From positions 1 through 24,542 of IMG/VR virus record IMGVR_UViG_3300032303_000159: 24,542 nucleotides of DNA. One strand, 5' to 3'. Below the pieces are notes generated by a model. The model searched no databases. It was not told where the DNA came from and saw nothing but the letters and a program-made list of their open reading frames with translations. Positions within the stretch are counted from its first letter, which is position 1; each line of letters begins with the position of its first letter. The translations under genes were made by a program, and so were the position numbers. Shown in pieces: positions 515 to 16,676 of this stretch. This stretch comes from a virus. Taxonomy: Duplodnaviria; Caudoviricetes.

Positions 515-602
515 CACATTCCTTTTGTTTTTCTGCTACTTTAAGTTGTTCTACTGCTTGTTCAGCATTTTGTTCATCAAACTCTTTATTATACTCACTC
601 AT
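483..602 (-). CDS. 39-aa acidic microprotein between the two polymerase halves
   Basis: MSEYNKEFDEQNAEQAVEQLKVAEKQKECDALTSGCKGS, preceded by a GGAG RBS. It overlaps the end of Pol-N and the start of Pol-C in the third frame. Confidence 0.55.
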   Translation of the reverse strand: MSEYNKEFDEQNAEQAVEQLKVAEKQKECDALTSGCKGS

Positions 603-1755
603 ATCTACTCCCGAATAATGTTTTAATTTCGCCATCAAAGTTTTGTAGGTTAGGTTTACTTGAACTAAGTCTACCTGTTCTAGCCACACATTGATTAAGC
701 TGTCCGTGTAATCTTCCTTCATGCCAGTTCATCTCCTTTCTTAAATCTACCAGTCCTCTATAGTAAGCTGTTAATCGTTTCTCTAGTGTTGCCCTTTTAA
801 CCAGGACTTCAACCAGGTCTTTACCATACTTACTTCTAGTCTTTACAGACTTTAAGGTCTGATCATCTGTTGAGAAAAAACCTTCTTTGTTTAACTCCGA
901 TCCTTTAAGGGGAGTTATAAGTCTAGGGAATACTATTTCATGTTCGACCCACCTTTCTTTTTGTTGACCCATACGAGTCCCTGTTTTAAATACGCCAATA
1001 ACTTCTCTACGCCTGACTTTAAAAGTCCCGCCATATAGAAGAGAAGATACATGCTCCGTGCTATTAGGATTAAACTCCACAAGCTCATGATACTCAAAAA
1101 GGATTCTGTCAATGATTTCAATTTGGTCTTCAAGTTCTTTAGCCAAATGATTGCTACTATTCTCATCAAATAAAAGTCCATTAAATTCCATCTCCTGTAA
1201 TATAATTAAATCTTGGTTATGTAAACTAATAAGTCTTTGCATAGGTTTTGTAGCTACCGCAAATTCTTCCATCTGTTTATCATATACCTTTTGCGTTAAC
1301 TGCAAATCACCAATTAAGTATTCTTCTAAGATATCTTTAGGAATGTTAGGTGTATCTATCTTGTTGCCCCAATACTCTGTAGCAACAACATCAAGTTTAC
1401 TACCCAAATCATAGTAAGCAGAGACGCCATTGAGACTTGGATAGGGATATTGTTGTCCTGTAAGTATAAAATGTACCAACTGACAATCCCAAATACGCTT
1501 ACCCACAAAGTTAATGCCATACTTGCGAAGCCAATGCAAATCAAACTTAATATTAAAGCCAACCAATATCTCACTCTCATCAATGTCCTTTTGTATTTCA
1601 TCTAGTTTATGGCGATAAGGTTCGTCACCGTACTCAATGCTAATGGTACGGGGAGTAGAACCGAGGAGCCCTACATAACATAATTTATTAGTCTCATCAA
1701 AGGGATTGCCTTTGTTGCTAATGGTTGTTTCTACATCTAAGACTAAGCTGCGCAA
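595..1755 (-). CDS. DNA polymerase family A, N-terminal part (3'-5' exonuclease + thumb)
   Basis: ExoI LDVET, ExoII GFNIKFDL, ExoIII YLIGDL, FNPNS, and RTGRLSSSKPNLQN. Stops just before motif A. Confidence 0.93.
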   Translation of the reverse strand: MRSLVLDVETTISNKGNPFDETNKLCYVGLLGSTPRTISIEYGDEPYRHKLDEIQKDIDESEILVGFNIKFDLHWLRKYGINFVGKRIWDCQLVHFILTGQQYPYPSLNGVSAYYDLGSKLDVVATEYWGNKIDTPNIPKDILEEYLIGDLQLTQKVYDKQMEEFAVATKPMQRLISLHNQDLIILQEMEFNGLLFDENSSNHLAKELEDQIEIIDRILFEYHELVEFNPNSTEHVSSLLYGGTFKVRRREVIGVFKTGTRMGQQKERWVEHEIVFPRLITPLKGSELNKEGFFSTDDQTLKSVKTRSKYGKDLVEVLVKRATLEKRLTAYYRGLVDLRKEMNWHEGRLHGQLNQCVARTGRLSSSKPNLQNFDGEIKTLFGSRYE

Positions 1756-4619: not shown

Positions 4620-5369
4620 TTAAATTATACTTCTATAATAATTGTATATTGCTTTTGCATATTTGTCAAGCGTTGTTCCTTCTAAACCAGGAGCGGTATT
4701 AACTTCAAAGACAAAGAATTGATTATCAATTAGTCGGTGCCCAATATCAACGGCACCGAAATCAAGGCCCAGTAATTGAACAGCCCTGCGGGCTGATGAT
4801 AGTAGTTCTTCGGTCGGAGCAATTTCTGCCCTTGCGTAGACCCATCCGTTGCTATGGTTTCTAATGCCATTGCCATTACCATACCCCAGTTTCTTTTTCT
4901 TTTGTTGAACATCAAGTATCTGATCACGGAATACGTGAACACGATACTCGTGCTTATGTTTAGTAGCTACAGTATACAATGGAGCATTGACTAATTCATT
5001 AAAAGTATTAGCAATAATAATACCACGGCCACTATGTCCTGTGGTTGTAGTTCTACAATATATATCTTTACCATTAGCAAGCTTATATATTTCTTGTTTA
5101 CTAATAGACCATTTAGGAAGATTAGTAAACCCATTTTGAGAAAGTATATTGAATGTAGTAAGTTTGTCACAAGCTAATTGAATAGAATTAGGTTTATTTA
5201 AATCCTGTTCCATCCACCTAAAATGAGGTGGATTGGAGTTGCCCCAGTTTACAATGACATCTTTACGTCTAGCGTTATAGGAAGGCGAAACCCTTAGAAT
5301 ACCAAGGGTTCTAGCCAATCTTTTAGCAGATACACTATCTACTTTATAAGGAAAAAGTTTAAGACTCAT
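4620..5369 (-). CDS. ATP-grasp peptide/amide ligase (RimK-like, phiEco32-type)
   Basis: VNWG, DKL, GHSGRGI loop, EYRVHVF, RNHSNG, LGLDFGAVD and EVNTAPGL are typical ATP-grasp motifs. Confidence 0.88.
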   Translation of the reverse strand: MSLKLFPYKVDSVSAKRLARTLGILRVSPSYNARRKDVIVNWGNSNPPHFRWMEQDLNKPNSIQLACDKLTTFNILSQNGFTNLPKWSISKQEIYKLANGKDIYCRTTTTGHSGRGIIIANTFNELVNAPLYTVATKHKHEYRVHVFRDQILDVQQKKKKLGYGNGNGIRNHSNGWVYARAEIAPTEELLSSARRAVQLLGLDFGAVDIGHRLIDNQFFVFEVNTAPGLEGTTLDKYAKAIYNYYRSII

Positions 5370-5487
5370 TGTTATTCTCCCACCAATAATAAATTAAAAG
5401 TGCAATACCAATAATAATTAGTAAAGGTATTATTACTATCCATTCTGCAACTTCTTTAGCTAACCAAAACTTTATGTATTCATTCAT
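5359..5487 (-). CDS. 42-aa single-pass membrane peptide
   Basis: MNEYIKFWLAKEVAEWIVIIPLLIIIGIALLIYYWWENNNES; ATGA overlap with the GATase stop, AAGGA RBS, and it overlaps the ATP-grasp start. Confidence 0.7.
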   Translation of the reverse strand: MNEYIKFWLAKEVAEWIVIIPLLIIIGIALLIYYWWENNNES

Positions 5488-6425
5488 TTAGTTTTTCCTT
5501 TTAATAAAGAAGGTGATGCATAGTTATGATATGCAGGTACACCTACTGGTTCTATTGAGTCATCTTCATATTCATAATCATCTACAAAAGATAAAGAATG
5601 GAATGGAACATTATAAAGAAACTCTACAGTTCCTTGATATGTTTCAAACATAAGATCACAAGTAAAGTCTTGGTTAACTGCTACAACTTCCATTAGTTCA
5701 CCAGTCTCATATACTTTAAGAGTAGCAGGATCAGCTACGTCTTCTAGTAATTCTACTAGTGTACCTACTGCAATTACACTAGGTGTTGGTGTTGTAGCTA
5801 CCTTTACACTAGCTTTGTATGTTGCTACTGGTTTACGCCAGTTACCATAACTGTAATCAGTATCTTTCCATGTTGTAACAGGAGCTATATAAGGCTTATA
5901 ACTTGTATTAGAATACCAAATCTCATCATCCCAAACACCCTTATTTTCGTTGAAGATGTTGTGATTTCCATGACGATCGAGGAAGATAAGTTTACTATAT
6001 CCAATACGAGATTCAATTAAGTCTTTCAATGGATCTTGGAAGATAGCCAAGTTACCCCACTTGTTAACAAGCGGTTGAAGAACGTTATTATTAAATCCAA
6101 TGGTATCACTGTGATCAGAATCACCGAAACCATTGATAATGCCGTTATGGACAAAGCCAACTGCATTATTAATTGCAAAGGGATGACAATTTGTTTTATC
6201 AATTTTACCATGAGTCTTTATCCTAAAATGTAAGACAACTTTCTTGTCTTGATGTTTAACATATTCTTTGTAGAATTCTTTTAGTGAAAAGAAACCTTTC
6301 TTAATATGTAACTGTTTATCTTCTGCAAACATGAAGCCTGCCCCATCTGGATTAGAATCATAACACTCTTTAAGTGTGTTGTATGGAATAATCTTTTCTT
6401 CTGGTTTATATATTGCTATACACAT
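5484..6425 (-). CDS. Class II (Ntn) glutamine amidotransferase with C-terminal extension
   Basis: N-terminal nucleophile M-C, NPDGAG, HFRIKTHG, NCHPF, HNGII and SDT. Confidence 0.9.
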   Translation of the reverse strand: MCIAIYKPEEKIIPYNTLKECYDSNPDGAGFMFAEDKQLHIKKGFFSLKEFYKEYVKHQDKKVVLHFRIKTHGKIDKTNCHPFAINNAVGFVHNGIINGFGDSDHSDTIGFNNNVLQPLVNKWGNLAIFQDPLKDLIESRIGYSKLIFLDRHGNHNIFNENKGVWDDEIWYSNTSYKPYIAPVTTWKDTDYSYGNWRKPVATYKASVKVATTPTPSVIAVGTLVELLEDVADPATLKVYETGELMEVVAVNQDFTCDLMFETYQGTVEFLYNVPFHSLSFVDDYEYEDDSIEPVGVPAYHNYASPSLLKGKTK

Positions 6426-7989
6426 TGTTAATGTCCTTTTTTAAATGATTACTAAGTTCAGGAAACATACGTTTACGTTGTGATAACCACGCAACGAATG
6501 CTTCATGATGTGTTTGTTTCTTTAGTGCTTCGTTTGATTGAGCAGGCATGCAATAATCAACAAGTGCTTGAACAAATTGTAAACGCATTGCAAACTCTTT
6601 GTAATTCATTGGAGTCGCAAACAATCTGACTTCAATTGTTTTCTCATTGTTAAGATTAAGTGCATTGTATCTGTCACCACCATGTCGATTCTTTCTTGGA
6701 AAGATAATAGTACGATCACTGTTCATACGTGCATAGTTATTATCTATGCGACCTGCAATGTGATGTATAAATTCTTTATTATCAAAACGATTTAAGAATT
6801 CAGTCAACTTGCCAATTGTCAACTGCGACAAGGGTTTCCGAGACACATGTACATGCATACCTACGTTGTTTGCTACCTTAAGATCCTTAGGTATGTTATC
6901 GTAAAACTTCTTAAAGATTTCAAGATGAATGTCTAATGTTGCAGGACAAGTTACAATCTCAAAACCATTACGAATTGAACCATCTGTTTTCATAAGAGCA
7001 TGACCATGCATTAGCTTACCAACACCTAATTGTGCACGATTACGATTATCTGTTTCATATTCTAATTCACAACCAAGATACACAGTGTTTGGTCTAACAC
7101 GAGTAGCTTTAAACTTAAGCATACTTTCTACACGAGTAGAATAGTTATGAAGTTTATATGATGCATCTAAACAATGATGACATACCTTGTCAATCATAAG
7201 TTCTGTAACAGTTTCATTACCACAATTAGTACAAGTATCAATATCTACTTCATCACGATTATATACATGACCATCATGAAAGAATTGTTCAGGCTTGAGC
7301 CATATATCATAACGTTCATTAAATGTATATCCATATTCTCTTGGATCAGTAAACTTATGCATCTGTACCCAATCGGAAGTGCCTAGTCTTACACGCTTTT
7401 GAGTACCATCTACATGATACTGATTAGTTAAAGCGTCTTTGTAATAAGCCCACTGAGGTATATCTTTAACTGCAAATAAATCTTCAAGGCTTATAGGATT
7501 ATCTAATGATTCTACTAACTGTCCTATCTCTACTGCTTTGTCAAGCATAACTTGAGTAGTACGATTAGGTCGTAATGCATTAGAACGAAGACGCCTTTTT
7601 AGATTACCCCAAAAGCCTTTCTTTAGAGTTCCATTTTTATTATGAAATTCTATTGGATTAACAAGATAATATAAAGCATCTATAATTGTAGAAGCATTAG
7701 CTCTATAACTCTGATGAGTTAATAAGTTTGTTTCTCTACATGCATCACGATGCACATTGTAAACAGTTAAACGTCTACTTTTATTAGTCTCATCGTTGGT
7801 ATAAAATTGCAATACACGCTGTTCTTTATACCAAATGGTAGACAAAGTAAAGGTAGTGCGAACAGACCTTTGTTCATTGTAATCCCAATTGGTATCTTCT
7901 TTAGTCCAATAAGTTTGTCGTATGTCTGGATGTTCCCATCTAAACATATTAAAAGCTTTATTGAAATCATTAAAACTATAAGGTTTCAT
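6406..7989 (-). CDS. Putative amidoligase (COOH-NH2 ligase, glutamine synthetase-like) with Zn ribbon and long N-terminal extension
   Basis: GCELEY, DGSI, GFEIVT, GMHVHV, RYNALN and TIEVRLF motifs; CTNC...CHHC precedes the ligase domain. Confidence 0.85.
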   Translation of the reverse strand: MKPYSFNDFNKAFNMFRWEHPDIRQTYWTKEDTNWDYNEQRSVRTTFTLSTIWYKEQRVLQFYTNDETNKSRRLTVYNVHRDACRETNLLTHQSYRANASTIIDALYYLVNPIEFHNKNGTLKKGFWGNLKRRLRSNALRPNRTTQVMLDKAVEIGQLVESLDNPISLEDLFAVKDIPQWAYYKDALTNQYHVDGTQKRVRLGTSDWVQMHKFTDPREYGYTFNERYDIWLKPEQFFHDGHVYNRDEVDIDTCTNCGNETVTELMIDKVCHHCLDASYKLHNYSTRVESMLKFKATRVRPNTVYLGCELEYETDNRNRAQLGVGKLMHGHALMKTDGSIRNGFEIVTCPATLDIHLEIFKKFYDNIPKDLKVANNVGMHVHVSRKPLSQLTIGKLTEFLNRFDNKEFIHHIAGRIDNNYARMNSDRTIIFPRKNRHGGDRYNALNLNNEKTIEVRLFATPMNYKEFAMRLQFVQALVDYCMPAQSNEALKKQTHHEAFVAWLSQRKRMFPELSNHLKKDINNVYSNI

Positions 7990-8262: not shown

Positions 8263-8446
8263 TTAGAATCTCCTTAAGTTGAAATTGAATTTCTACATCG
8301 AGTTTACCAACAACAAAGTCTGCCCCATATTTTAAGATGGAGTCTTGGAACTCACCAATTACATGATAGAAGAATGCTTCTTCTTGATCTATCTGAGCAT
8401 CAACAGAATCGCTATCATCAATATAATCAAAATCATCTGCACACAT
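8249..8446 (-). CDS. 65-aa acidic hypothetical protein (MCADDFDYIDD...)
   Basis: Start at ATG 8446 with AAGGA RBS. Confidence 0.7.
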   Translation of the reverse strand: MCADDFDYIDDSDSVDAQIDQEEAFFYHVIGEFQDSILKYGADFVVGKLDVEIQFQLKEILNGRL

Positions 8447-8558
8447 TTTTACATTTCCTTTCTTCTTTACCTTTAGAGTAACCAACACGATAAGCAACCC
8501 ATGATCCATATAATACTAGAACAATAGATTGGATGAATAAATAAAGTTCAATTGACAT
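8433..8558 (-). CDS. 41-aa membrane peptide
   Basis: MSIELYLFIQSIVLVLYGSWVAYRVGYSKGKEERKCKNVCR; GGAG RBS. Confidence 0.65.
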   Translation of the reverse strand: MSIELYLFIQSIVLVLYGSWVAYRVGYSKGKEERKCKNVCR

Positions 8559-8559
8559 A

Positions 8560-8736
8560 TTAATCTCCGTTAGATGCAGCTTGATATTGTAACACTTTGA
8601 TCTTATTAATCAATAGGTTACGCTTAAGTTTGCGTTCATTTTTAGGGAACGCTTTGTATATCTTCCAGAATGCATGTGCATAGATTTCTTCTAATGCATC
8701 TGTATTATACTTTTCTAATTTAATATCTGTAGTCAT
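8560..8736 (-). CDS. 58-aa basic hypothetical protein
   Basis: MTTDIKLEKYNTDALEEIYAHAFWKIYKAFPKNERKLKRNLLINKIKVLQYQAASNGD; AAGGA RBS. Confidence 0.65.
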   Translation of the reverse strand: MTTDIKLEKYNTDALEEIYAHAFWKIYKAFPKNERKLKRNLLINKIKVLQYQAASNGD

Positions 8737-8830
8737 GATGGATTCCTTTAGGATCTAATTGTTCAAGACGCACACACAAATCGTGTGCGAGTAATTCTAT
8801 TGTTGCTTTACAAATTAAATATGAAGTCAT
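8720..8830 (-). CDS. 36-aa hypothetical protein
   Basis: MTSYLICKATIELLAHDLCVRLEQLDPKGIHHDYRY; TAAGGA RBS. Confidence 0.5.
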   Translation of the reverse strand: MTSYLICKATIELLAHDLCVRLEQLDPKGIHHDYRY

Positions 8831-8897
8831 ATTAATTTCCTTATTATAAATGTTGTGCCCCATTATTACAAGAGTTGTTGGCTCTTGCGAATGAGAC

Positions 8898-8924
8898 AAA
8901 AAAAAGCCCTCAATTAAGAGGGCT
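8898..8924 (-). terminator. Rho-independent terminator after the 124-aa gene
   Basis: Minus strand reads AGCCCTC-TTAATT-GAGGGCT followed by a T run. Confidence 0.85.
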
Positions 8925-8947
8925 ATAAACTATGGAGATTGTATAAC

Positions 8948-9322
8948 TTAAGCTGCTACTGCTATGTCACCTTCTACAACAGTGTAATCTACTTTAACTT
9001 TAGAAGTTGAAGGATTATCTGTTGAATCTGTTGATGCAGAAGCATTGTACATTGATGATTGATTGTCAATTGCTTCTGTGTTACCAGAGTTAGCTCGTTT
9101 AGCTACAGAGAGTTTGATACGATTACGTAGATCAGATAGTTCATCTACGAGATCAACGATCTCTTTAGCAAACGGTGATTTGTATCTTCGAAAATTTGTT
9201 TCTGCTTCTTGTAACAGTTGCAATGCTAGATAGATTCTTAAACCTGAGTTAGCTGGTTTTGTAATCTCATTGTACTTAGTAAAGTCAAAGTTAGATTTAG
9301 TTGTTGATGTTGATTGTGCCAT
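8948..9322 (-). CDS. 124-aa hypothetical protein, first gene of the leftward arm
   Basis: Start MAQSTSTTKS at 9322 with AGGAG RBS; helical core with a low-complexity S/T tail; has its own terminator. Confidence 0.8.
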   Translation of the reverse strand: MAQSTSTTKSNFDFTKYNEITKPANSGLRIYLALQLLQEAETNFRRYKSPFAKEIVDLVDELSDLRNRIKLSVAKRANSGNTEAIDNQSSMYNASASTDSTDNPSTSKVKVDYTVVEGDIAVAA

Positions 9323-9620
9323 AATAATGCTCCTAATTAAGGTTAATAATAAATGTCTCTTACGAGACAATTACTGTGCCATCACGGATTATTTAGTTAT
9401 GTTACATAGTAGGCTGCTTGTGGTCAGGGCTCTCTGCAAGAGGCACTGGACACATTGCAGATACTTCTGTAACAGAATGAAATGATTTGTGATGCACTTT
9501 GTAATTGACGTAAGAGATATATTATTAATCCTTATGGAGAGCATTTATGGTGCAATCTGTCAACAACCATAAAGATACATTGACTGACTAAATACAATAG
9601 GAAGTATGGCTAACGAAAGG
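9243..9620 (+). repeat. Long imperfect inverted repeat (arms ~9243-9394 and ~9480-9620); candidate structured ncRNA
   Basis: Colinear paired blocks: GTTAGCT/GGCTAAC, ATTGTA/TACAAT, AGTCAA/TTGACT, GTTGTTGA/TCAACAAC, GATTGTGCCATAA/TTATGGTGCAATC, ATGCTC/GAGCAT, TAAGG/CCTTA, TTAATAAT/ATTATTAA, TCTCTTACG/CGTAAGAGA, CAATTAC/GTAATTG, GTGC-ATCACGGATTATTT/AAATGATTTGTGATGCAC. Confidence 0.85.
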
Positions 9621-9647
9621 GGATAGTGTTAGATAATTAGTGTGAGC

Positions 9648-9660
9648 TAAGTTATTGATT
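9648..9660 (-). promoter_or_regulatory. IHF binding-site consensus
   Basis: Minus strand AATCAATAACTTA matches WATCAANNNNTTR exactly, in non-coding DNA. Confidence 0.5.
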
Positions 9661-10026
9661 GATTAGTGAGGTGGGATACACAGTAGACTTACTCAAGCTA
9701 GGGCTATGATTAGGTACTATAGTTAATCTATTATGTGTATGTATATTGATTATAGATTAGTTGTAGTTATATTGTATGTTATGTGTATGCTATAGCCAGG
9801 GGGATAGGGGTGAGTGTGTGTGGATATACCCCTAGGGGGAGCAATATATAAATTATATGTTCTTATGCTAGGGAGTAAACTAGATTTTATAAGGAATTAT
9901 CAATTAGGTCCAGTAAAGGTTTAGAATAAGGGCACCCTTACGGGGCTATTAGACTATGGTCCTCGTCTTAACTAAGTTCGTATTCTTAGACTTCGGACTT
10001 ACGTCCTCAGTCAACTACGTACCCTC

Positions 10027-10160
10027 TATTAATTACTAATTAATATTATTATATTAATATTATTATTATATTATTATAATATTATATATATATATTATAT
10101 AAATATATATAATTATAATATAATTAATAATTATTATAATTAATAATTAATTTATTTTAA
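10027..10160. other. Pure A/T block, candidate origin DNA-unwinding element
   Basis: A single C (10036) in 134 bp; 10037-10160 has no G or C. Confidence 0.8.
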
Positions 10161-10182
10161 CAGATCTTTATTCACTTGTCAA
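10154..10182 (-). promoter_or_regulatory. Leftward sigma70 promoter
   Basis: TTGACA-17 bp-TAAAAT with extended -10 TG. Confidence 0.75.
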
Positions 10183-10221: not shown

Positions 10222-10250
10222 TTGACAAGTCTTAAAAACTGTGATATACT
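10222..10250 (+). promoter_or_regulatory. Rightward sigma70 promoter for the packaging/structural arm
   Basis: TTGACA-17 bp-TATACT with extended -10 TG. Confidence 0.8.
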
Positions 10251-10276: not shown

Positions 10277-10924
10277 ATGATTCGAGAAAACCTCCCAGAA
10301 GATACCAAGGAAGACAAGCTCTCTGGCTATAAGCTAGATGACAAAGAGATTATTCTAAGTAAGAAACGTGGTCCTGGTTTTAAGTTTAACAACCCTAGTT
10401 ACTTTAACCTTGAACAGAAGACAGATGCTTGTGCTCTGTATTGTGTTTATGGTGATGTAGACCAAGTCAGTGAAATGACTGGTATAGATCCTAAGTTCCT
10501 ACGTCAATGGCGTGATGAACCTTGGTGGTCTGAGATTCAAAAGAAGGTGTTTATTGAACAAAATGAAAAACTCGCATCTAGAATTTCTGGTGTACTTGAT
10601 CGTTCTCTTGATCATCTGGTCGATAGACTGGACAACGGGGACTATCTATGGGATGTCAGGAAATCCAAGCTGGTAAGAAAACCAGTAGATACTAAAGTTC
10701 TTTCGAACTTGTTCAATAATTTAATCACACGTAGGCAGTTAATACGTGGCGAACCAACTAGCATTACTACGCAGGTAGCGGTAGATGATAGACTTAAACT
10801 ACTCGCTGCTCAATTCCAAAAATTCGCACTAGCGAAAGAAATCGAAGGGGAAACTTATGGCAACACCAATGAAAAAACCAATGAAGAAAATGACAATGAA
10901 AAAGGGCATGAAAGAAAGCTCTAA
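10277..10924 (+). CDS. Probable terminase small subunit
   Basis: HTH-like segment (ACALYCVYGDVDQVSEMTGIDPKFLRQW) followed by helices; first gene of the arm containing TerL. The start is placed at ATG 10277 because the track start lies inside the promoter. Confidence 0.6.
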   Translation: MIRENLPEDTKEDKLSGYKLDDKEIILSKKRGPGFKFNNPSYFNLEQKTDACALYCVYGDVDQVSEMTGIDPKFLRQWRDEPWWSEIQKKVFIEQNEKLASRISGVLDRSLDHLVDRLDNGDYLWDVRKSKLVRKPVDTKVLSNLFNNLITRRQLIRGEPTSITTQVAVDDRLKLLAAQFQKFALAKEIEGETYGNTNEKTNEENDNEKGHERKL

Positions 10925-16239: not shown

Positions 16240-16381
16240 GGAGTACATGAAAGAACAACTTGTCAGAGGTTTAAGTTCTGATGAGAATGAAATAAGAGGT
16301 AGATGTAACGCAATATTAAATATCCTTAGTGTAACTTATGAGGATTTAGTAGAAGGAGCAAGAGAAGATGCAAAATACTAG
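16157..16381 (+). CDS. Hypothetical protein (74 aa)
   Basis: GGAG RBS; overlaps the portal 3' end by 83 nt; WMEHP motif, helical. Confidence 0.7.
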   Translation: MTVTQQEFLDWMEHPATKALKKALHNDREYMKEQLVRGLSSDENEIRGRCNAILNILSVTYEDLVEGAREDAKY

Positions 16382-16676
16382 TGGAATCCATCCAAAGGGT
16401 CACAGAGTTTTAATACTCCCAGATCCAGTGGAAGAAGTAACACAGAGCGGTATTATTTTGTCAGTCGGTGAAAATAGAGATAGGGAAAGACTAGCACAAC
16501 TAAAAGGTACTATTGTCGAATTAGGCAATACTGCATGGTTAGACCAACCAAGCCCCTGGGCTAATGTTGGAGATCATGTAATTTTTGGTAAGTACTCAGG
16601 CCTAATCTATCAAGGCGATGATGACAAAGAATACCGAATCATAAATGATTTAGATGTTGTAGCATTAGTTGATTAA
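16368..16676 (+). CDS. groES: GroES/Cpn10-like co-chaperonin
   Basis: HPKGHRVLI, mobile loop TQSGIIL, GTIVELG, VGDHVIFGKYSG and YRIINDLDVVA. Confidence 0.9.
   Translation: MQNTSGIHPKGHRVLILPDPVEEVTQSGIILSVGENRDRERLAQLKGTIVELGNTAWLDQPSPWANVGDHVIFGKYSGLIYQGDDDKEYRIINDLDVVALVD

Follow-up and report, generated by a model that had tools for sequence, protein, structure and literature searches.

Promoters that work on single-stranded DNA are already known from conjugative plasmids, and hairpin promoters from phage N4. Type I toxin mRNAs that are silenced by folding back on themselves, as well as the RNase III hairpins of phage T7, fold on the mRNA strand. The Frpo rods of plasmid leading regions fold on the template strand, recruit host RNA polymerase, are silent in duplex DNA and can prime synthesis, according to the available parts of the papers on them (PMC9849209, PMC11541004, bioRxiv 2026.01.09.698686, PMC12672017). 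GNA mini-hairpins, which occur in single-stranded DNA origins and in the N4 promoters, are far more stable in DNA than in RNA, as given in the accessible part of PMC13037366. Here we describe a cassette of less than 1 kb, found in a widespread group of uncultured tailed phages, in which a small early gene has an inverted, non-coding copy of itself ahead of it. The cassette is a real, selected and undescribed architecture, for which we infer a mechanism below. A literature search, largely without subscription papers, retrieved no phage gene with an inverted, start-less copy tracking it base for base.

Genomic context of the cassette

The window, that is the whole stretch of 24,542 nt analysed here (IMG/VR record IMGVR_UViG_3300032303_000159), represents 55% of a podovirus-type genome, and the sequencing runs that contain its DNA mostly carry freshwater or lake labels. 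The plus strand encodes terminase, portal and capsid, and the minus strand PolA, DnaB, primase and an amidoligase cluster. The early arm has the rod at its head, and beyond the rod come a spacer rich in G/T, then G tracts, an AT tract and a divergent pair of sigma70-type promoters. The features of the locus are:

8897..8924, minus strand: intrinsic terminator closing the 124-aa gene (terminator scan; RNA contig end at 8934)
8948..9322, minus strand: 124-aa gene, the first early gene; its ~75-aa helical-hairpin core is conserved in a wide uncharacterised phage family
9330..9334, minus strand: Shine-Dalgarno AGGAG within the conserved AACCTTAATTAGGAG box (sequence)
9354..9369, minus strand: small GNRA-type hairpin at -47 to -32, with compensatory variants; broken in the copy arm
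9243..9435, plus strand: gene arm, the template strand of leader, RBS and codons 1-26 (fold and arm alignment)
9436..9438, plus strand: loop GCA at the apex, reading t-GCA-a in the window; 5 of 12 close relatives have c-GNA-g
9439..9620, plus strand: distal arm, which repeats leader, RBS and gene start in inverted, degenerate form; its own ATG (9547-9549) opens 14 codons only
9621..9800, plus strand: G/T-rich, C-poor spacer (T70 A52 G45 C13); similar skew family-wide
9799..9839, plus strand: G tracts and CCCCTAGGGG palindrome, candidate genome terminus region; similar tracts in rod-less relatives
10154..10182, minus strand: strong sigma70-type promoter aimed at the rod across the junction (11 of 12 consensus matches in the promoter scan)
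10222..10250, plus strand: divergent sigma70-type promoter ahead of a terS-like gene at 10277-10924 (promoter scan)

Across the family, the cassette gene is the first or second gene past the late/early junction, and a divergent terS-like gene lies inside the available flanking DNA in 30 of 63 locus clusters (53 of the 63 have at least 1.5 kb of flank). Cobaviruses have two converging arms and terminal repeats (DTR) with G+C-rich starts, as described in the available part of PMC6775973. Because of these G+C-rich repeat starts, the genome terminus probably lies near 9800-9840 in the window, and the 3' end of the folding strand would therefore be located at that terminus. The contig ends of relatives cluster too loosely to place the terminus.

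Between the G tract and the AT tract, a GC-richer conserved block (9950-10025) is common to distant relatives. The AT tract itself (10026-10160) is long and near-pure A/T, contains internal palindromes and is kept in relatives with and without the rod; it is a candidate origin or part of a terminal repeat. The minus-strand promoter at 10154-10182 has no gene for 800 nt ahead of it and may act only on concatemers or circles. Elsewhere in the window, the minus-strand cluster at 4620-7989, comprising ATP-grasp, glutamine-amidotransferase-like and amidoligase genes, is present in Alcaligenes phage QDWS535 too. DNA polymerase A is divided between two genes in the window (595-1755, minus strand, and the gene upstream of it) and in one relative (G001), and is whole in another (G004). 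A GroES-like gene (16368-16676, plus strand) sits between portal and scaffold, with the same annotation in relatives.

The gene start and its upstream copy form a single rod

RNA folding of 9243-9620 yielded a single unbranched rod on both strands, with -153.6 kcal/mol on the plus strand (z -11.7) and -127.6 kcal/mol on the minus strand (z -12.3); none of 100 shuffled sequences was as stable. This bears out the rod-like fold-back that a sequence-only reading of the DNA had proposed. That reading had paired 9243-9394 with 9480-9620, and the inverted repeat is indeed present; pairing, though, runs past 9394 and 9480 and ends only at an apex loop of 3 nt (9436-9438), which lies 115 nt upstream of the gene's ATG (9322). 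Alignment between the arms is good over 9264-9435 and 9438-9602, the outermost helices being weaker, and the helices are unbroken from the apex across the leader into the gene. The left arm is, as already read from the sequence, antisense to the leader, the RBS and the first ~26 codons of the 124-aa gene.

The two strands of the rod are not equivalent. With DNA parameters the plus strand folds at -77.1, versus -65.0 for the minus strand, and the plus-strand wobble bias noted earlier was found with both parameter sets, with 12 G·T pairs versus 4 (RNA) and 14 versus 1 (DNA). In the arm alignment, G·T mismatches number 11 on the plus strand versus 3 on the minus strand, and G·A mismatches 9 versus 1. 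The other long inverted repeats in the window are confined to the AT tract and a repetitive tail gene.

The suspicion that this is not a known RNA family agrees with Rfam, since the covariance models of Rfam 15 gave no match in the window at gathering score. At an E-value threshold, Rfam gave sub-threshold matches only, mostly on the terminator, and no ribozyme or sRNA. A blastn search of the region against 50,697 annotated phages returned a single 35-nt match, likewise on the terminator. Cruciform extrusion from the duplex was considered and rejected, as both hairpins amount to about -140 kcal/mol versus an estimated several hundred for the duplex.

The rod is conserved and covaries in related phages

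Protein homologs of the 124-aa gene form 84 clusters at 50% identity, and a degenerate pattern search returned 88 loci, 87 of which were true homologs by HMM. The locus set, from which 2 truncated and 9 duplicate loci had been removed beforehand, comprised 111 loci whose upstream DNA was long enough; 94 of them are distinct, and they fall into 63 clusters, with protein identities down to about 30%. Loci with little or no rod (L082, L128, L136, L156, L160) were kept in the denominators, and since the clusters are related to each other, the counts given here are not independent. In 56 of 63 clusters the apex of the best inverted repeat was located between -100 and -160 relative to the start codon; the inverted-repeat score was at least 85 in 37 of 63 clusters versus 1 of 55 control windows.

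Among 12 close relatives, 87.9% of cells were paired and 32 of 151 pairs showed two-sided change. None of 500 shuffles reached this value; the shuffle ignores relatedness, and slid controls dropped to 35-45% paired. One G·U pair is invariant in all 12 close relatives, and the bulges in the rod are conserved. Covariation in the 12 relatives and the apex position in the 56 clusters thus indicate that the rod structure is selected, as had been suggested, and is not a product of neutral decay.

Relatives that lack the gene, one of which has a 75% identical terminase, keep the junction layout and have no rod. No rod was found in MW202796.1 (10-22 kb) or Alcaligenes phage QDWS535 (25-50 kb), both of which have window-like junctions, nor in SIO1 (whole genome) or CRP-901 (33-53 kb only). 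A scan of MW202785.1 (17-40 kb) gave one score of 96, within the portal gene. Because close relatives exist that lack gene and rod alike, the cassette is non-essential for replication of the group. A cassette with rod also occurs on a contig of an archaeal MAG (L178, JAHEYD010000038.1), probably a mis-binned phage; the genome collection gave 2 matches, of which this was the only true one.

The distal arm is a degenerate inverted copy of the gene

The earlier reading overlooked what the right arm is, namely an inverted pseudo-copy of this same gene. Gene and leader recur in this distal arm in inverted and degenerate form, with frameshifts and without a start. Of 60 clusters, 48 have the copy anchored at the RBS region, and in 16 it extends over at least 80% of the ORF; one additional whole-gene case (L161) was missed by the filter. 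Rods are 190-415 bp long. In relatives with a whole-gene copy the base of the rod lies beyond the stop codon, and in one of them (L093) the rod spans ~830 nt and ends ~35 nt beyond it. In the lineage of the window the copy reaches only from the leader to about +60-80, and judged by this comparison the window rod is a short form of the family-wide cassette.

The copy follows its own gene closely and has lost the reading frame. Its best match is the own gene in 41 of 48 cases. The ATG of the copy is lost in 20 of 48, and where an ATG is kept the longest ORF has 37 codons. The mismatch rate between copy and gene is equal at all codon positions (0.15-0.17), and an insertion of at least 3 nt is found just ahead of the SD in 21 of 45 cases. 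The RBS and first codons are the most constant part of the copy. In four close relatives, both copies match their own gene at 72 of 87 pairwise differences, the pairs not being independent. Neutral decay of one old duplication was rejected on the two-sided covariation, the anchoring of the copy and its match to the own gene, and this base-for-base tracking.

Mismatches favour the template strand as the folding strand

Pooled over 37 rods, the ratios of template to sense mismatches were 326:127 for G·T, 431:67 for G·A and 119:28 for G·G, while shuffled-arm controls gave 1.6:1, 1.7:1 and 2.5:1, respectively. G skew was 0.61 at mismatches versus 0.30 in the flank and was higher in 32 of 37 rods. 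The caveat that local G/T skew might be the source of the wobble bias is therefore correct in part: base composition accounts for some of the strand bias, and the remainder exceeds the shuffled-arm ratios. In 59 of 62 cases, the template strand gave the more stable DNA fold. Mismatch spectrum and fold stability together support the view that the plus strand of the window is the folding strand.

The template strand is also rich in c-GNA-g hairpins (25 versus 2.2 expected), the sense strand having 2 versus 0.9 expected. For 29 of 48, a reading as sense-RNA cUNCGg is impossible, and 19 of 48 fit RNA cUNCGg as well. Only 29 of 63 clusters have cGNAg loops, most of them from a single GC-rich clade, and the positive control for these loops failed, with 3 on the T-strand of the F leading region and 5 on its sense strand. 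From the sequence patterns we infer that DNA, and not RNA, would be the folded form.

Relative to base marginals, the 37 pooled rods are depleted in G·G (119 versus 225) and enriched in T·T (158 versus 114) and C·C (28 versus 14). G·G is a stable mismatch in RNA. The pattern of depletion and enrichment resembles the order of mismatch-repair efficiency.

The gene, its transcript and its promoters

Downstream of the stop codon, a terminator is present in 40 of 58 clusters. A sense-strand hairpin similar to that of the window leader is found in 57 of 63 clusters versus 9 in the CDS control, with a median start at -48, and sense-strand GNRA loops number 12 versus 0.8 expected. This hairpin is broken in the copies inspected. 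It is likely the 5' stem-loop of the mRNA and would mark the mRNA 5' end.

The AlphaFold model of the 124-aa protein has pLDDT of at least 90 over 63 residues; residues 11-80 are confident and form a short helix and a helical hairpin. Across the family, these proteins are soluble helical hairpins, 72-125 aa in length. The 124-aa protein matched no PHROG or Pfam family, gave no usable atlas match and had no real match among annotated phages or plasmids. A fold search with it retrieved only uncharacterised phage homologs or generic helical hairpins (best Z 7.8).

Promoter analysis revealed that the gene arm has no sigma70 -10 behind a -35-like hexamer in 20 of 21 testable clusters. A composite -35/-10 element, with the -10 on the distal arm, is found in 3 of the 21, none in 17 and an ordinary gene-arm promoter in 1; 14 further clusters were dropped from this test, their -35 lying outside the aligned part. 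The window has no qualifying -35. The L001-type lineage has an ordinary TTGCAA-17-TAACAT promoter.

Sigma54 promoters (-24/-12) carry GG and TGC elements at fixed spacing, according to the available part of PMC3844500. A sigma54-like motif, CTGGCGYGG-N4-TGC, lies on the distal arm facing outward in 26 of 63 clusters versus 4.8 expected (strict form, 17 versus 0.0). It is found 145-190 nt upstream of the ATG on the template strand (L094, L102, L106, L110, L116, L132, L133 and others) and is absent from the window. The core of the motif also resembles Chi sites. In 3 other clusters, TTGCAW-16-TAYAGT is present.

In four metatranscriptome assemblies compared over 8400-10000, coverage was limited to the gene, with 8934-9346 as the widest extent, and the stretch 9347-10000 had none; the contigs are unstranded and come from related strains, and the gap at 9347-10000 was not used as evidence. 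RNA contigs of two studies end at 9346, without loose ends. These ends are a weak hint at a short mRNA; strain divergence at -24 could also cause them, and the ordinary promoter of the L001-type lineage would explain an RNA end at 9346 without any fold. On the sense strand, a terminator stands directly ahead of the copy in two loci (L097, L108) and at -700 to -250 in 8 clusters.

In several genomes, another gene on the same strand lies upstream of the cassette. In five of these (L097, -797; L102, -690; L127, -815; L143, -877; L159, -804) it encodes a highly acidic protein of 106-151 aa, with a terminator in those inspected, including L097. As a guess from composition, this protein is a candidate DNA-mimic anti-defence protein.

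A proposed single-stranded DNA fold-back for reading the gene

We consider it about an even bet (probability roughly 0.5) that the cassette is a single-stranded DNA fold-back acting like the plasmid Frpo promoters and provided, in addition, with a gene-length surrogate of the non-template strand. In its favour are the conservation and covariation of the rod, the tracking of the gene by its copy, the template-strand bias, the DNA-type loops, the likeness to Frpo rods and the rarity of a -10 in the gene arm. Against it stand the low number of composite promoters and the want of a -35 in the window, the ordinary promoter of the L001-type lineage, the failed loop control and the narrow spread of the loops, the share of composition in the strand bias, the same-strand gene upstream in several genomes, and the close relatives without the cassette. 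End-replication gaps and resection after entry are familiar from T7 and RecBCD biology. Resection (5'->3') once the DNA has entered, or alternatively a gap left by end replication, might make the gene's template strand unpaired near the genome end, the 3' end of the template presumably facing the terminus. The copy would then fold back as a substitute partner strand for the template, and host RNA polymerase would start and complete a free mRNA on the fold, with a start near -48; the fold may also give rise to a replication primer. For RNA to be released, the non-template strand has to rewind, and the RNA that bacterial polymerase makes on a single-stranded template is only ~20 nt long, as described in the available part of PMC2241882. 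With a gene-length copy this ~20-nt limit on transcription of single-stranded DNA would be lifted. The copy is short in the lineage of the window, and there the polymerase would thus need to move from the fold into ordinary duplex. A more far-reaching version, in which the gene is read from one strand only, with the full-length, co-evolving pseudo-copy as its missing non-template strand, and is activated solely by a single-stranded genome end, arising from host resection on entry or from an end-replication gap, so that the cassette is a self-contained sensor of single-stranded DNA, is tentative and may well be wrong. A gene-length version of a single-strand promoter in double-stranded DNA genomes of podovirus type would imply a programmed single-stranded state at the genome end, and would be a way round the block on transcribing single-stranded DNA.

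That the functional product is instead a rod RNA of antisense polarity made from the plus strand, and serving as antisense regulator, decoy or template for host polymerase (6S-like and Obelisk/HDV-like forms included), is unlikely. Such an RNA would fit the better RNA fold of the plus strand, the G·U bias and the invariant G·U pair, and an ORF paired along a rod resembles the Obelisks as portrayed in the available part of PMC10827157. The sequence-only reading had proposed a discrete ~380-nt transcript starting at 9242, directed by TTGTAA-16-TAGATT at 9209-9236. This string is present, but it is unlisted in the promoter scan and lies in coding codons; of 14 close relatives, only 5 keep it intact, 2 more have something promoter-like there and 7 have lost it, and the whole-gene relatives place the start site inside the rod. 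The transcript also lacks a plus-strand terminator after the right arm and an Rfam ribozyme or sRNA match, and its strand carries GNA triloops of DNA type and a depletion of G·G despite the stability of this mismatch in RNA. A DNA-metabolism element is somewhat less probable: it might be a primer or a signal for the terminus or packaging at the genome end, or it might result from repeated gene conversion by fold-back, through which the copy stays matched to the gene. DNA heteroduplex and conversion would most easily explain the base-for-base tracking, the rod is close to the late/early junction with its terS-like gene, and rods of the Frpo type prime synthesis too. Yet the copy is specific to the leader and ORF of this one gene, as illustrated by its end shortly past the stop codon in L093, it has lost start codon or frame, and gene-less relatives with the same junction layout have no rod.

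Two readings place the function in transcripts of other origin. Read-through RNA from the promoter at 10182-10154 would carry the antisense copy in front of the gene and might fold back and hide the RBS, silencing the gene after circularisation or in concatemers, with a short mRNA from an internal start escaping this control. The strength of this promoter, the still considerable stability of the sense-strand fold and the constancy of the copy over RBS and first codons are in line with it, but the sense strand carries C·A and C·U mismatches, the opposite of what selection on an RNA helix would leave, and sense terminators stand ahead of the copy in some loci; we regard this as quite improbable. 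We give still less credence to outward transcription of the copy from its own promoter, yielding a non-coding mRNA mimic that would act as a regulator sponge or form an R-loop on the template strand. The outward sigma54-like motif and the TTGCAW-16-TAYAGT element might drive it, and an RNA-DNA hybrid would give the same mismatch spectrum. However, a trans-acting RNA has no need of helices that are unbroken from apex through leader to gene, neither motif occurs in the window lineage, and the sigma54-like motif is limited to related clades. A retron or reverse transcriptase origin was rejected, with no RT family among the ORFs scanned (54 of 101 called, in two complete relatives).

Comparison with known systems

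The fold-back-silenced type I toxin mRNAs and the T7 RNase III hairpins share with the cassette an upstream sequence complementary to the translation start region. They differ in that the mismatch spectrum of the phage rod favours the strand opposite the mRNA, and the phage protein is a soluble helical hairpin. Obelisks (PMC10827157, in its available part), and likewise HDV-like elements, have a small helical-protein ORF paired along one side of a bulged rod. The phage rod, in contrast, is fixed at one locus of a DNA genome, with RBS and terminator, has a strong one-strand bias and shows no ribozyme match, Pfam family or sign of circularity.

With the N4 virion-RNAP hairpin promoters and the primase-site mini-hairpins of G4 and ssiA, as far as the available part of PMC13037366 describes them, the cassette has in common c-GNA-g DNA loops on the template strand and a position in the phage early region. 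The likeness in GNA loops holds at family level, the apex of the window itself being without c-GNA-g. The N4 and G4 hairpins have 5-7 bp and are read by a phage enzyme, whereas the phage rods are far longer. No RNA polymerase family was found among 54 of 101 called ORFs in two complete relatives, which have several large virion proteins without a family.

The Frpo/ssi/ssp elements found in F and IncI plasmid leading regions are likewise long imperfect rods on the template strand, placed just upstream of a gene that is expressed early. Frpo1 and Frpo2 are of similar size (arms ~150 nt) and have a similar G·T bias, each 9:4 template to sense as computed here. A blastn search of four F leaders against 63 phage leaders gave no match of Frpo1 or Frpo2, and one 20-nt match from another leader. 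Unlike the phage rod, which spans the RBS and ORF up to the whole gene, Frpo rods stop ~45 nt short of the ATG, and reconstituted -35/-10 elements occur in only 3 of 21 testable phage clusters. The Frpo rods belong to a conjugative T-strand, the cassette to a double-stranded DNA tailed phage with terminase, portal, capsid, PolA and DnaB. On the features tested, the cassette stands outside Frpo, the N4 promoters and all Rfam families, and it probably works like Frpo.
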